A stretch of DNA of 60,219 nt, from positions 1 through 60,219 of the forward strand of contig CAYNSQ010000004.1 of assembly GCA_964400155.1 (NCBI GenBank), in the 5' to 3' direction. The notes below the pieces were generated by a model. It was not told the DNA's origin and made no database searches. It saw only the letters and a list, made by a program, of their open reading frames with translations. The stretch comes from an uncultured Candidatus Saccharibacteria bacterium (lineage in GTDB: Bacteria > Patescibacteriota > Saccharimonadia > Saccharimonadales > UBA10212). The translations under genes were made by a program, and so were the position numbers. Shown here one piece after another: positions 27,346-32,438 of the stretch. Every line of letters begins with the position of its first letter. The first letter of the stretch is position 1.

Positions 27346-27630
27346 TTAGACATCTAGAAAGACGGTCACTTGGTCGGCTTTGACGTGGGCTATACCCCTT
27401 GTTATCTGCATACTAAAATCCGGTTTGCCTTCAGCCCGTACTACAATAGTTCCAGCTTGGAGTAGTGACATAAAATTCTTATGATGAGGCAATACATCAA
27501 ATGGGCCAGTCAAGTTGACGGCTGAAAGACTGTTGGCCACTCCTTCGTAATAGATTTCAAATGGTGCATAAATTTTAACCCTCATTGTATCGGCCATCGT
27601 TGGTTTTACAGATGCACTGGGTTTGCTCAT
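27346..27630 (-). CDS. atpC: F1 epsilon-like subunit, N-terminal beta-sandwich only
   Basis: [19 protein letters not shown] resembles the epsilon GxFxILPxH motif; no C-terminal helical hairpin; follows the beta gene. Confidence 0.7.
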
Positions 27631-29060
27631 TGCTTATCCTGGTCTTCTGTTGCGGATGATTGAGTAACTGGTGGAGAGGAAGGATGCTCCTTGGCTTCTG
27701 GTGGTTTTGGTAACTCTGACGGAACTTCGTTTGAACCCGTTTTTCCTTCGCCGCCAGCTAAGATGTCTTCAATCCCTTTTAGCGTCTGTTCTCTGGTTAA
27801 ATACTCACCCTTTATTCCGGTAAGAGCTTCAGTTACAAACATTCTTTGAGAGAAAAATTTAATTAATTTGCTAGCCTTTGCAAAATCAGCTCTGTCCGTT
27901 GGAGAAAGTTCATTCTCACCAATGATAGCAATTATGCTTTTTAGAGATTCATGCTTTTGAATTAGTCCTTGCACTTTCACTGACAGATCGTAGTGTCTTT
28001 GTCCTACAATTTCAGCAGTAAGCAGTGAGCTTGAGGTTTTTATAAGATCAACAGAAGGTCTAATTCCTTGTTCGGCGACCTTACGAGATAACACAATGGT
28101 ACCGTCTAGCTCGTGCGATATCATTTGCACAGCCGGATCAGATAAGTCGTCAGCTGGGACATAGATGGTCTCTACGGCAGTAATTGATCCGTTTTCATTT
28201 GAACTTAATCTGTCTTGTAAAAGCTTCACATCTGAAAAGATAGTAGGTTCATAACCACCTTCGTTGGGTATTTGTTCCAAAATTGTTGAAAGTTCGTTGC
28301 GAGCTTGGACATAACGATAAACATTGTCTGCGAAAAATAATATGTCTTTCTTTTCTTCATCTCGAAAGTACTCAGAGGAGGCCACAGCCGACAGTGCCAC
28401 TAACATACGCTGGATTGGGTTTTGATCCATTTGTCCAAAAAACATTACTGTATTTTTAAGCAAATCGTTTTCTTTTAATGTTTCATAAAGTTCATGACCT
28501 TCACGAATGCGTTCTCCGATGCCTGTGAAGAATGACAATCCTCGACCACCTCGCGCAACGTTGTTAATGAGCTCCATTGTTAGTACAGTTTTTCCTACAC
28601 CGGCACCTCCAATAATGCCCATCTTGCGTCCTTTTACAAATGGCGTAAAGAAGTCAATGACTTTTATACCAGTTTCTAGTATTTCCGGTTTTTCGATGGT
28701 AAATGAGGTGCTCCTAGGAGGAATTTTCATAATATTTTTAAAAGTAACTTTACCTGGATCAGCTGGAGGTTGGCCATCAAGCGGCCTTCCTAGGGCATCA
28801 AAGATACGACCAATAGTACCGCTCCCCACCGGTACCTCAATTCCTCGACCGGTTTTTTGAACTTGCATATTTTTCTGAAGTGTTTTGTCTTCTGCGATGT
28901 TAAGACAAACTGCAGTGTTGCTATCAACAAGACTATCAACTAACAAAACACCCCGACCGGGGCTGTTAACAACAAGCAATTCACCTATTTCTGGCTCTTC
29001 ATCAAACTGAACCGTAACCACTAATTCTTTGATAGTCCTGATTGATCCTGTAGTACTCAT
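27627..29060 (-). CDS. atpD: Divergent F1 beta-like subunit
   Basis: [25 protein letters not shown]; the DELSEED motif reads NELSPTD. Confidence 0.9.
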
Positions 29061-29905
29061 TTTGTATGCCTCAGTGCATTTACAACTTCTTTAAGACGTT
29101 CATCCTTAATGTGTCTATTAGCACGATTGTAAGAAAGACTAAGTTCGTCAAAAGTTTCATCAGAGAGCTGATGGGCTGCACTCATAGCCTGGAAACGACT
29201 AGCATATTGTGCCAACTTGGACTCTAGAATTACTTCAGCCAGTGCTATTTGCATCATTGTTCGCTCAAGATGGTCAACAACTGCAAAAGTACTTGGCTCA
29301 AAGATGTAATTATCTTCACTGATAGTTTCTTGACCAGGAGCGCTCTTTGCTCCACGTTCTGCAACAGCCGCACTTAGCTGAATATTTCTAATTTCCTGGG
29401 AACTAAGTGAAACATAGCCTTGATAATAAACAACAGTGTTGCTGTATTTTTGAGCCTCAGAAACTATTGGAGTAACATTGATGTCTCTGTCACTAGTTGG
29501 TAATTTAAAACTTCGAATGTAATGTATTCCACGTTGAGCAAGCTGTACCGCACCATGGTGTCCGATAACTAAAATATCGTTTTTTTCTTTGTCGTAGACT
29601 TTTAGTGCTTTGTGTATTAAACGCTGATCAATATCACCGCTAAAACTTCCTTCGCTAGTTATCAGCACAAGCAAAACTTTTGGATTAACTGCAGTGTTTG
29701 ATGTACTACGTCCAAAGTGAAACAGTTCGTCTACTCTAAGCTGGGTATATATATTCCACAAATCGGCAAAGTATCGTTCCGAACTTTGAACTTGATCTTT
29801 AATTTGAGCTATCCTCATACTTGCCAGACCTTCAAAAACGCTGGTTAGCTCTACCATAGTGTGCATAGCATCACGCTCTTTAGCTATTTCTTCAGTTTGT
29901 CTCAT
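29057..29905 (-). CDS. atpG: Divergent F1 gamma-like subunit
   Basis: N-terminal helix, [14 protein letters not shown]-terminal [10 protein letters not shown]...YNRANR. Confidence 0.85.
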
Positions 29906-31341
29906 TTAGGTGCCCCCTGTACTATTGAAACTTCTGCCTTTAACTTAGCAAGGGCTGCTACGTAGTCTTCATCTTTTTTGATAGATGAGGCAATATCATT
30001 TACAACCTGTTTCATTCTGGGAATATTAATGCCATGTAACGGATCACCTTCTAAAATCATGTCAATCATCAACTGTTGGGCAAGTACAGAAAATGTTTCT
30101 CCGGGAGCTTGTGTGAATAGCTGGTTGAGCTGTCTTCCCTGCAATACACTTTTTTGTGCTTCTACCGAAAGCTCACTACCAAATCTGGAAAAGTTTTCAG
30201 CTTCTCGAAATGCAGCCAGTGTCTTTAGCAATTTATCATTTTGGTCGTGCTGTCTTTTGTTGTGTCCTCTACCTCCTACACGCGTCACACTAAGACCAAT
30301 ACTAAGTGCCGGTCTCAAACCCTGACGGAACACTTCCATGTCTAAAATCCACTGTCCGTCAGTAATAGACATTATGTTGGTTGGTAAGTAGGCTGTAATA
30401 TCTCCACCATCCGCCAGTACCACCGGTATTGCCGTTAAACTGGCATGGTTGGCTTTTAGTCTTCCAGCTCTCTCCAGCAATGCTGAATGTGCATGAAACA
30501 TATCACCTGGATAACTATCACGACCAGGACTCAACCCCAACAAAAGGGCGATTTCACGTCTAGCGTGAGCATGAGCAGTCAAATCGTCATAAATTATGAC
30601 TGTATCTTGAGCTTCTTTCTGCCAAAGATACTCAGCCAAGGCACAGCCTACATATGGAGCCAGATAAGACAAGACAAGTGACTCAAAAATTGTCGAAACC
30701 ACTACAATTGATTTTTTAAGTGCATCATTTTCGTTTAATCGCGTTAGAAGCATGTTGATGTCGCTTCGACGTTTGGCTATTAGTACATAAACCACAATTT
30801 GATCAGTGTTCTTTTGGTTGATTGCAATCTGAGTTGCCATGGTTGATTTACCTGATTTAGTATCACCAAGCAAAGCCAGACGTTGCCCTCTCACAATTGG
30901 GAAGATAGCGTCAATAGACATCAGACCGGTTTCTAGTTGAGTTTCAAGCATTTGCCTTGCATAAATTGGTGGTGCACCATTGAATATCGGCCAATCGGCA
31001 TCTGCAGCAATCGCACCTTTTCCATCCAGCGGTTCGCCGGTAACGGACACCACCCTGCCAACAAAATCTTTACCAACTTTTGTAGTCATAGTTGGGGCTA
31101 GAACTACTGCTGCCATGCCAATTCTTAACACCATATTCCCCAAATGTAATGCTTGCAAGCGGTCTTCCAAGACATTCGTTATAAAGCCCCTGCTGCCGTC
31201 TTCAAACATTACAATAGAATGTACTCCCACGGGCTGCATGCCGCTTATTTCAATCATGAATTTGTTTACACCAATAATCTCCCCAACCGGAGAGCCACTA
31301 TCAACTAATTTTTTGAAATGTCCAGCACTAGCGCCGTCCAT
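29902..31341 (-). CDS. atpA: Divergent F1 alpha-like subunit
   Basis: [53 protein letters not shown] (Arg finger kept). Confidence 0.88.
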
Positions 31342-31828
31342 TTGCTGCTCCCTTAATGAGTTCTATCAAATAATTCTCTTGCTTTTCTAAATACACTCTT
31401 AAACTCATATCAAAAAGTTTATTTGGGGTTCTGATAACACATCCGGCTGCAATATTTGGTTGTAAACCTACTTGAATAAGAGCTTGTGGGTGGACCGACC
31501 CTCGAAACCACGCCAATATACGCTCCAATGCTTTTGGTGAAGGCTCGGCGGCAAAACTAATGTGGATTTTTGGTGCTGTTTGTTTGATGATTTTGAATTG
31601 TTCGGTAAGTGCTTTACGGTGGGTTTCTTCAAGCAAACTGTAGCCATTTTCACGGGCTATGCTTTCTAAAGCTTTGGTCACACGGGGTGTTTGGACCGGC
31701 GAACCGGCTGCGCGAATGTTAGCAGAGACAAAAAAATCATCAACAGCATTTAATTCGCGTTGAAGTGACGAAATGTCTGATGTTCCAACAATACTTAGCG
31801 GTAAATGAAATCTATTACTATGTTCCAC
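31328..31828 (-). CDS. F1 delta-like subunit with a divergent N-terminus
   Basis: C-terminal [21 protein letters not shown] resembles the delta/OSCP C-terminus; sits before alpha; probable GTG start at 31828 after GAGG. Confidence 0.6.
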
Positions 31829-32438
31829 GTTGAATATCCTCAATAATCGCTGCTTTGTTAGCCTCAAGTTCGGTCAAAATATATTCTAGTTGGTCAGTTA
31901 AATCAATCTGACTACCAATTGAGCGTAAAATATAGTGATTTACAATTCGCGCCATTTCTTTATCAAATGCTTCAACAATCTTCTTTTTCTGAGCATCAAC
32001 CTGAGCGGTCATTTGTTGCTGAAGGAATGTTCTTTGTTGGTCAATAGTAGCGGTAGTCTTCTCAATAGACTCCAGCGCAATCTGTTTGGCATCTACTATT
32101 GATTGTTCATATTTTTTGAATTCATCCTGTAATGTCTTTGTTATTTCAGCTCGCATATACTCATTAAGTTGAGCTGTTGTTTGACGTAAGTCTTGTTGTA
32201 GGAACATGGCATTTTCACCAATAATTTTTTCAAAGTGTAGCCGCCCACGGTTTCGCAGTTCTTCACGGAAATCAGCGTTAAATATATGTTCTACATCAGT
32301 CTTGGCGGCTTGTTCTAAATCGGTTGGCAGATCGGATTTTTCACCTCCGCTCTTTCCAAGTTTCAATGCCACCCAGATAAAAGCCAGCGTCGCTGCGCTT
32401 ATTGCTCCAAGTACCAGTAATAACCCACCTTCGTTCAT
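31818..32438 (-). CDS. Single-TM coiled-coil protein, F0 b-like
   Basis: N-terminal TM followed by a long helical charged region, in the atpF position. Confidence 0.55.
   Translation of the reverse strand: MNEGGLLLVLGAISAATLAFIWVALKLGKSGGEKSDLPTDLEQAAKTDVEHIFNADFREELRNRGRLHFEKIIGENAMFLQQDLRQTTAQLNEYMRAEITKTLQDEFKKYEQSIVDAKQIALESIEKTTATIDQQRTFLQQQMTAQVDAQKKKIVEAFDKEMARIVNHYILRSIGSQIDLTDQLEYILTELEANKAAIIEDIQRGT

Follow-up and report, generated by a model that had tools for sequence, protein, structure and literature searches.

The window analysed here is the whole 60,219-nucleotide (nt) stretch of contig CAYNSQ010000004.1 from an uncultured Candidatus Saccharibacteria bacterium, and is contig C4 of an 839-kb genome that is held in 52 contigs and is 95% complete. 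Seven same-strand open reading frames (ORFs) run through 33273-27346 on the minus strand in the order X270-b-delta-alpha-gamma-beta-epsilon, spaced from a 22-nt gap to a 50-nt overlap (Table 1). A preliminary description of the window reported the last six, at 27346-32438, as a divergent F1-like ATPase cluster, and these ORFs were confirmed at those coordinates on the minus strand. Their neighbouring ends share 4-50 nt, and no stop or frameshift interrupts them. The first gene, X270, carries the main finding of this study, in that it encodes a subunit c homologue deprived of the ion-binding carboxylate and fused to an exported domain.

Table 1. Positions in the window of the seven-gene unit and the genes downstream of it (aa, amino acids; TM, transmembrane).
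Feature	Position	Strand	Description
X270	32461..33273	-	270 aa; signal peptide or N-terminal anchor, exported beta-tulip domain, C-terminal c-like hairpin
b-like	31818..32438	-	206 aa; N-terminal TM helix, then long helical region; peripheral stalk
delta/OSCP-like	31328..31867	-	179 aa; N-terminal domain reduced
alpha-like, non-catalytic	29902..31341	-	479 aa; Walker A GDTKSGKS; Arg finger SVTRVGG retained
gamma-like central shaft	29057..29905	-	282 aa; PF00231 1.3e-28
beta-like, catalytic	27627..29060	-	477 aa; Walker A and Walker B Asp retained
epsilon-like	27346..27630	-	94 aa; beta-sandwich alone, PF02823 at residues 16-93
dn337	26257..27270	+	membrane-anchored, bactofilin-like beta-helix; convergent with epsilon
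Pam-type pilus operon	17426..26164	-	eight co-directional genes; directly downstream of the cluster

The cluster is a second set, because a complete canonical atpBEFHAGDC operon (a-c-b-delta-alpha-gamma-beta-epsilon) sits on another contig, C1. Four alpha/beta-type genes are present in the genome, two on C1 and two in the window, so the window cluster is not the sole F1 set. The genome-wide search gave one match to PF00119 (subunit a) and one to PF00137 (subunit c), both in the C1 operon. The absence of an a subunit from the window cluster, already pointed out in the preliminary description, is borne out by the lack of any PF00119 match there.

Among the F1-like proteins, Pfam recognises alpha (PF00006, 5e-65), beta (PF00006, 1e-63), gamma (PF00231, 1.3e-28) and the epsilon beta-sandwich (PF02823, 2e-12). 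Delta matches weakly (Pfam OSCP, E 0.0026; NCBIfam delta, E 5e-5; both under cut-off), and the b-like protein has no match in Pfam or NCBIfam. The NCBIfam equivalog cut-offs for atpA, atpD, atpG, atpC and atpH served as the yardstick for genuine F1 subunits. The window subunits score best on these canonical models, yet all miss the curated cut-offs, with a score/cut-off of 396/554 for alpha, 432/462.85 for beta (TIGR01039), 77.7/194 for gamma (TIGR01146), 44.7/67 for epsilon and 22.3/57.5 for delta. Identity to the genome's own canonical copies is 42% for beta and 37% for alpha.

About 90 family members keep the catalytic motifs (Walker A and B, GERxRE and the Arg finger of alpha), and those quoted earlier as kept in the window (beta GGAGVGKT and GERxRE, alpha SVTRVGG) are all present. 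The drifted coupling motifs are also found as quoted, namely NELSPTD (ENELSPTD in full) at the DELSEED position of beta, FGQMDQNPI, and GDTKSGKS at the alpha Walker A. Hydrolysis was called plausible before, and the family-wide conservation of the catalytic residues strengthens this view, from which we infer ATP hydrolysis itself.

Some parts of the head are trimmed or extended. Epsilon has 94 aa versus 140 aa in the canonical copy and is devoid of the C-terminal helical, inhibitory domain, as noticed before. The alpha-like N-terminus is ~14 aa shorter than that of canonical alpha, and the beta-like protein ends in a ~40-aa disordered tail.

The peripheral stalk of b and delta appears to be retained, its sequence signal being weak and its position and predicted fold in agreement. 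By hhalign the delta-like protein matches canonical delta with a probability of 62% (E 7.5e-5) and the b-like protein matches canonical b with 55% (E 1.2e-4). The delta N-terminus had been judged unrecognisable. It is indeed reduced, but the AlphaFold model of the protein, with a predicted local distance difference test score (pLDDT) of 87.3, has delta/OSCP chains as 35 of its 36 top Foldseek matches. The b-like protein is 43-65% identical across the order.

The preliminary description also held that there is no c subunit and that an unrelated exported protein occupies its place. This has to be revised, as that protein, X270, ends in a c-homologous hairpin. A hidden Markov model (HMM) of the hairpin, run against all 4,640 ORFs of the genome, picked up X270, a paralogue on contig C38 and the canonical c (E 3.7e-4), the last being the best match outside the X270 family, and the next match stood at E 0.03. 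With hhalign, the hairpin and 28 canonical Patescibacteria c subunits align over 69 columns spanning both helices and the loop (probability 96.8%, E 2.8e-10). In the reverse direction, searches of other genomes with the hairpin profile recover their canonical c subunits, at E values as low as 2.6e-10.

The ion-binding carboxylate column is acidic in 0/73 fusions versus 28/28 canonical c subunits. The C-terminal hairpin is otherwise the most conserved part among 62 Saccharibacteria X270 homologues; G233, R234, N235 and P236 are invariant in 69 sequences, and the genome's own canonical c shares the loop motif IGRNP. As is established for E. coli and related enzymes, subunit c points its N-terminus to the outside, and its R-Q/N-P loop meets gamma/epsilon in the cytoplasm. 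An exported N-terminal domain is topologically consistent with c, because the c N-terminus is the outward-facing end. Likewise, the gamma/epsilon-c interface can be argued to be preserved, because the GRNP loop is invariant.

The AlphaFold model of X270, built with 69 sequences (pLDDT 91.6), consists of an N-terminal helix, a beta domain and a helical hairpin of 35+35 residues. In Foldseek searches, phage cement/decoration proteins matched the beta domain (E 3.8e-6), and a Chloroflexus c subunit matched the hairpin (TM-score 0.89, root-mean-square deviation 1.1 A).

The c homology is visible only via profiles and less diverged relatives. Pfam hmmscan of the isolated X270 hairpin and four homologous hairpins returned no PF00137 match at E <= 10. 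PF00137 exceeds its 24-bit gathering score at the C-termini of long exported ORFs of 658 aa (28.9 bits), 2,592 aa (26.5 bits) and 631 aa (24.1 bits), while a 2,573-aa exported ORF stays under it with 21.5 bits. For the fusion beside a second F1-like cluster, at locus L104, the score is 35.2 bits for the 769-aa frame and 29.1 bits for the 760-aa protein, on which the model is covered end to end.

X270 is thus a c-subunit homologue without the carboxylate and with an exported N-terminal beta-tulip domain, and we propose it as a rotor subunit. Every source name in the X270 family is 'hypothetical protein', and full-text searches on Saccharibacteria, Candidate Phyla Radiation (CPR) and Patescibacteria F1-like/second ATP synthases yielded no description of the c-fusion. 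A carboxylate-free c subunit fused to exported domains is an unprecedented feature.

The paralogue on contig C38 (C38:2659-3693, a 344-aa frame) has the same exported domain and a carboxylate-free hairpin, and adjoins no F1-like gene. It may contribute to a heteromeric ring, or the hairpin may have been reused as an anchor. The beta-tulip domain is also a module in giant ORFs of 700-4,900 aa in Saccharimonadia genomes, including G000:C49:1385-1729.

The fusion and the F1-like head are strongly linked. Among 121 Saccharimonadia genomes, the X270 family is present in ~75 and the b-like gene is detectable in 60. Where X270 occurs without a detectable b-like gene, a beta-like gene lies 3-5 kb from it in 19/19 genomes. 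Conversely, 15 genomes without X270 have no beta-like gene, bar one beta-like fragment (G010). Four genomes carry two complete clusters (G363, G390, G456 and G459).

Twelve genomes in two families have the beta-like gene alone and no canonical beta (G379, G392, G405, G411, G414, G420, G426, G429, G444, G447, G450 and G453). All 11 of these that were checked for c possess exactly one c-like hairpin, that of the fusion, and no canonical c. Hence the complex does not borrow the canonical Fo, because carriers without canonical beta and c retain the cluster.

The family is large. At least 484 confirmed relatives of the alpha-like protein exist in species-representative genomes, nearly all labelled Saccharibacteria, and the X270 family comprises 1,238 clusters at 50% identity (E <= 1e-30). 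Most of 80 loci retain the order metG-tatD-iscS-X270-b-delta-alpha-gamma-beta-epsilon. A phylum-wide sample showed four alpha/beta genes in the majority of Saccharimonadales and extra copies in many other Patescibacteria families.

We mapped 20 loci around beta genes of other Patescibacteria classes and another Saccharimonadia order. Most of them are second clusters of the same architecture, led by a gene for a signal sequence, an exported domain and two C-terminal TM helices. This first protein ranges from 250 to >2,500 aa, and the c-fusions of other classes carry modules of adhesin type, Big_1/invasin immunoglobulin (Ig) domains or an NHL propeller. Behind it, a b-like gene with a TM helix, delta-like, alpha, gamma, beta and a short epsilon follow.

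In a beta tree rooted on alpha, with supports from the Shimodaira-Hasegawa-like approximate likelihood ratio test (SH-aLRT), the canonical betas of Patescibacteria and Bacilli form one clade (100). The window beta falls outside it, in a Saccharimonadia clade (100) that is joined to 12 second-copy betas of other classes (97). The type 3 beta of Mycoplasma stands apart on a long branch of its own. The grouping with canonical F1 that would have refuted the preliminary interpretation is thus not seen for the window beta.

Compared with the closest relative, the F1-like genes show a non-synonymous divergence (dN) of 0.03-0.06, and X270 and delta one of 0.15, at a synonymous divergence (dS) that is saturated. 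The neighbouring iscS, with a dN of 0.32, is looser than the cluster. The seven-gene unit is under strong purifying selection and is conserved across Patescibacteria classes.

Some loci differ in gene length or placement. The second-copy betas of L090-L092 (family f38) and L093 are 646-764 aa long. The extra length is apparently an N-terminal extension, which would be reminiscent of the lengthened beta in the gliding ATPase of Mycoplasma mobile. In the same family and L093, c-fusions of 631-1,685 aa are located elsewhere in the genome, away from the F1-like clusters. Two other loci are of different make-up. The 2TM-a-c-b-alpha-gamma-beta cluster of L102 (G110:C15) falls on a long branch and may be N-ATPase-like, and L097 (G005:C8) has an isolated beta-alpha gene pair.

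Recent horizontal transfer of the cluster is unsupported, as its GC content of 0.40-0.42 is like that of the flanks and the flanking gene order is conserved. A promoter/terminator scan of the locus gave counts at chance level.

Against the canonical F1Fo enzyme, the likeness is broad. The unit has homologues of c (the hairpin), b, delta, alpha, gamma, beta and epsilon in the canonical order, and the window cluster keeps the Walker motifs, the catalytic Glu of GERxRE and the alpha Arg finger. It differs in having no a, in a carboxylate-free c homologue that is preceded by a signal sequence and a fused exported domain, in an epsilon without the C-terminal domain, in the reduced N-terminal domain of delta and in a beta outside the canonical clade.

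The preliminary description drew a parallel with the Mycoplasma type 2 and type 3 F1-like ATPases, which stands as an analogy but not as membership, given scores under the cut-offs of those models and the separate branch of the type 3 beta. The Type 3 'F1-like X0' ATPase (MSC_0618/0619), described as mycoplasma-specific (PMC12994834), is needed for the MIB-MIP antibody cleavage (PMC12994834, PMC3369863). Like the window cluster, it is a second non-respiratory F1-like set beside a genuine ATP synthase, serving a cell-surface system. One of its partners is laid out strikingly like X270 (signal peptide, exported region, two TM helices at the C-terminus), a resemblance in which no sequence similarity was detected.

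Type 3 differs in other respects. Its genes encode a 12-TM protein, a small cytoplasmic protein, gamma, epsilon, a protein with a signal peptide and two TM helices (SP-2TM), alpha and beta, and it has neither b and delta nor genes for a and c, whereas X270 is recognisably c. The MIB-MIP linkage is absent in the window, where iscS, tatD and metG lie on one side and the Pam-type operon on the other. On the Type 3 models, the window proteins score 248 against a cut-off of 520 (alpha, MSC_0619) and 394.7 against 570 (beta, MSC_0618), whereas a genuine type 3 beta scores 802-821.

A type 3 locus, L170, was found via a Mollicutes 16S primer match and class-wide searches. It encodes a multi-TM protein with 10 hydrophobic segments, a 172-aa protein, gamma, epsilon, SP-2TM, alpha and beta. 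Among 19 proteins, its SP-2TM hairpin reached only E 0.07-0.19 against the c profiles, which is not significant, and it is without an RNP loop, so that no link of the Type 3 SP-2TM protein to the c-fusions was shown.

The Type 2 G1-ATPase of Mycoplasma mobile gliding (PDB 9io5) is likewise an F1-like alpha/beta/gamma engine for surface-directed mechanical work. It differs by forming cytoplasmic dimer chains with PGK and by the long N-terminal extension of its beta, not seen in the 477-aa window beta, although betas of 690-765 aa occur in related clusters of another class. The window proteins score 321.6/600 on the alpha model MMOB1660 and 336.1/850 on the beta model MMOB1670, and the window beta reaches 285 bits versus 9io5 and ~345-365 bits versus canonical betas.

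The N-ATPases are also distinct, having their own a and a c with a Na+/H+ site, neither of which the window cluster has. The scores on the alt_F1F0 models are 325.5/750.5 for alpha, 385.3/752 for beta and 41.8/282 for gamma.

A partial precedent comes from nanobacteria. Omnitrophota have a 'symbiotic' non-respiratory F-ATPase beside type-4a pilus genes, proposed for attachment or motility, and its beta clusters with betas of Ca. Saccharimonadia (Seymour et al. 2023, PMC10066038). The Saccharimonadia betas of that clade probably belong to the present family. Both are non-respiratory F-ATPase paralogues co-located with pilus genes, the pili being type 4a there and Pam-type (donor-strand) fibres here. 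Subunit c has 0 occurrences in the main text of that article (PMC10066038).

The flagellar FliI-FliJ-FliH complex is comparable as an F1-related ATPase, with alpha/beta-, gamma- and b/delta-like parts, on a membrane machine that builds an extracellular filament. FliI is a homohexamer, though, with no alpha/beta pair, epsilon or c-like ring, and the window proteins score far lower on FliI models than on F1 models. Taken together, the family is a variant of the non-respiratory F1-like ATPases already known, with the carboxylate-free c-fusion as its one unprecedented feature.

Downstream of the cluster, the pilus operon encodes four paralogous pilins (p442, p449, p462 and p354) and a small protein, p246, that shares similar C-terminal strands with them and is a candidate tip pilin. 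Two of its other products end in a TM helix, a WxLIP/DUF916-like chaperone (p359) and a PKD/Fn3-like anchor (p297), and p229 is a membrane protein of 229 aa. The pam operon of Ca. Mycosynbacter amalyticus encodes the pilins PamA/B/E, the tip PamT, the membrane-anchored chaperones PamC/D and the anchor PamR (PMC13278184). Gene content, paralogy and TM layout of the window operon fit this published description, a match by description and not by sequence. PDB sequence searches with two of the pilin-like neighbours found no PamA or PamB entry, and the p442 homologue search gave only unnamed or hypothetical proteins, none labelled M. amalyticus.

The 2026 Pam preprint states that ATP-synthase genes consistently adjoin pam operons, and reads this as a link to ATP production (PMC13278184). 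These 'ATP synthase components' may be the X270-type cluster; the text of the preprint, as searched, does not mention the c-fusion. In our set, pam-like genes follow epsilon in 43/57 Saccharibacteria loci with enough flank. The presence of X270 correlates with pam adjacency, as 6/6 scorable X270-less loci are without pam (Fisher p 1.7e-4). Pilin-like and chaperone-like homologues also lie just past epsilon in two other classes (L090-L092 and L104). In Southlakia epibionticum, where iscS is followed by ydcF, mnmA and alaS, the cluster and the pam genes are missing together from the iscS-mnmA interval, which speaks for a shared role at the surface.

The beta-helix gene between the cluster and the pilus operon, dn337, scores 29.2 bits on PF04519 versus a cut-off of 27.9 and is found in 53/80 Saccharibacteria loci. 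This conserved neighbour, linked by association only, may be what the Pam preprint calls a 'tail fibre-like protein'. The shared theme of the cluster neighbours is cell-surface fibres and adhesins.

In other Patescibacteria classes, giant proteins flank the clusters of L094, L099, L101, L103, L105, L106 and L107, often divergently. Most of them have a MerR-type helix-turn-helix (HTH) at the N-terminus, followed by a single TM helix and a very large exported portion, an odd architecture for DNA binding in that it is tethered to the membrane. Those of L094, L099, L103, L106 and L107 are demonstrably homologous to one another.

We consider, at a probability of roughly 60%, that the seven-gene unit is an F-type ATPase that hydrolyses ATP, moves no ions and has a surface-exposed rotor. 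Its parts differ in firmness. An ion-independent ATPase built on the c-fusion is very probable, a rotary or torque motor acting at the cell surface is moderately favoured, and the Pam pilus as the load of this motor is a tentative assignment that falls somewhat short of even odds. The earlier suggestion of a motor uncoupled from ion flux gains support from the absence of a, from a c homologue that is carboxylate-free in 73/73 relatives and from the 11 genomes that retain the system with neither canonical beta nor canonical c; rotation is what we infer from the rotor-stator gene set.

Mechanistically, alpha3beta3 would hydrolyse ATP and thereby turn gamma-epsilon, which would be seated on the GRNP loops of an X270 hairpin oligomer, probably a ring. 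The b/delta stalk would hold the head via the single b helix. Torque or rotation would then cross the membrane to a crown of exported X270 domains, because no ion can be bound or conducted. Hydrolysis would not be self-inhibited, and such unrestrained activity is suggested by the epsilon without its inhibitory C-terminal domain. The likeliest load would be the neighbouring surface-fibre system of the Pam-type donor-strand pilus operon and the beta-helix membrane protein.

In an extended form, the complex would be the missing base that powers Pam-type pili and, in other CPR lineages, the giant adhesins that are fused to it or lie beside it. An ion-blind c-ring would spin the crown and would feed, order, spin or retract a filament made by donor-strand exchange without an outer-membrane usher. 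We regard this extension as unlikely on the present evidence.

Several observations weigh against a surface-acting rotary motor or its pilus load. Helix 1 of X270 retains only ~1.9 of the 6 Gly of canonical c, most of the Gly-rich packing motif being lost, whereas in the giant-type fusions all 6 are present; this weighs against ring formation. With no a subunit, the b-like stator is left without a known membrane partner that could resist the torque. The genes b through epsilon occur without a detectable c-fusion in 11/80 Saccharibacteria loci and in genomes G440 and G449, and the head may therefore work without X270, as some lineages keep it without the fusion. The sequencing runs found to contain the locus are DNA only, and none is an RNA run.

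As to the pilus, the chaperone-mediated strand exchange needs no dedicated machine according to the Pam preprint (PMC13278184). In 14/57 loci mnmA directly follows epsilon with no pam operon, and most clusters of other classes are without pam and adjoin the giant HTH-TM surface proteins instead. Within Saccharimonadia, adjacency is weak evidence alone, because gene order is broadly conserved there. The genetically tractable Southlakia is without the system, which thus escaped the Southlakia transposon sequencing study (Cell 2023); no essentiality data on it come from there because the strain has no X270-to-pam block.

The main rival to the rotary motor is a non-rotary, FliI-like role, in which the cluster would be an assembly or export ATPase, as FliI/FliJ/FliH are at the flagellar export gate. 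ATP-driven stepwise changes, with no sustained rotation, would let an X270 platform recruit, order or release Sec-exported pilins, chaperones or giant adhesins. The homology of FliI to alpha/beta, of FliJ to gamma and of FliH to b/delta is established, and pilus or adhesin genes adjoin the cluster in several classes; the loss of most of the Gly packing motif from X270 helix 1 and the lack of an evident stator anchor would suit such a platform too. On the other hand, a full set of rotor parts (gamma, epsilon and the c-like hairpin with its invariant GRNP loop) and stator parts (alpha3beta3, delta and b) in the canonical order exceeds the needs of an export ATPase. The Pam pilins carry Sec signal peptides (PMC13278184), which implies that no dedicated export step is required. 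We judge this role to be improbable, at a level well below that of the surface-acting rotor.

Less probable still, and in our view decidedly doubtful, is a cytoplasmic head tethered by the b-like helix alone in the manner of the Mycoplasma mobile G1-ATPase chains, the X270 hairpin being an anchor kept by synteny. It would account for the lineages that retain the head without X270, for the paralogue on C38 and for the f38 c-fusions that sit apart from their F1-like clusters. It is at odds with the strong phyletic and positional linkage of X270 and with the end-to-end fit of the Pfam c model to the hairpin, and an invariant GRNP loop is hard to square with a simple anchor.

The cluster could alternatively be a spare F1 head for the canonical Fo, with the a and c of C1 serving a second, hydrolysis-biased proton pump and X270 being an unrelated neighbour. 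The cluster brings b, delta, alpha, gamma, beta and epsilon of its own yet no a, and G440 and G449 pair it with the canonical c as the sole c of the genome. However, the 11/11 genomes with beta-like and c-fusion and no canonical beta or c, the adjacency of X270 to beta-like in 19/19 genomes tested, the same order in other classes and the c-homologous hairpin with its invariant gamma/epsilon-facing loop all oppose it. Sharing of the canonical Fo is therefore rejected on phyletic grounds as very unlikely.

Finally, a decaying, functionless duplicate of the ATP synthase operon, for which one might cite the subunit scores under the curated cut-offs and the drifted coupling motifs, is effectively refuted by the ORFs free of frameshifts and stops, the catalytic motifs kept in ~90 homologues, the dN of 0.03-0.06 at saturated dS that is tighter than that of iscS, and the >480 alpha-like relatives in species-representative genomes and 1238 X270 clusters.

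What defines the rotary ATPases of the F, V and A types is that they couple ATP to ion flow via a c-ring and an a subunit. The present family retains the rotor-stator architecture without an ion site or channel, and its c-like subunits, in proteins of up to ~2,500 aa, bear extracellular domains, which have a decoration-protein fold in the window and are Ig-like or NHL-propeller modules in other lineages. If the surface-exposed rotor is real, an F-type engine would export mechanical work to the cell surface. If the powered base were also true, it would be the first known rotary ATPase that passes torque across the membrane to an extracellular structure and not to ions. The complex is also a candidate for the source of energy of the newly described Pam pili, whose assembly is at present believed to need no dedicated machine.

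The Mycoplasma 'F1-like X0' enigma would then gain a tractable, sequence-interpretable counterpart, the X270 cluster being interpretable because its membrane partner is recognisably subunit c. A surface-acting ATPase would also explain the 'ATP synthase' genes in genome-minimal fermentative CPR bacteria, some lineages of which have only the X270-type version. Calls of 'F-type ATPase present' in CPR reconstructions would need care, and the 12 beta-like-only Saccharimonadia genomes would be mis-scored as possessing an ATP synthase.

Two further genes of the window deserve mention. An FtsA/PilM-like ATPase gene lies at 12637-14037 on the minus strand, just past alaS, with no complete type IV pilus operon adjoining it; Southlakia has the same arrangement, and the gene is annotated pilM there. 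At 35273-36700 on the minus strand, metG is seemingly frameshifted. The ~45 N-terminal residues with the HIGH motif (…PHIGFGMELVYADVLARYAGSVKKG*) are in one frame and the remainder (KKRVVYCTGTDEHGGK…) in a different one, so that the listed ORF begins only at model position 75. This is probably an assembly error of the metagenome in an A-rich run.

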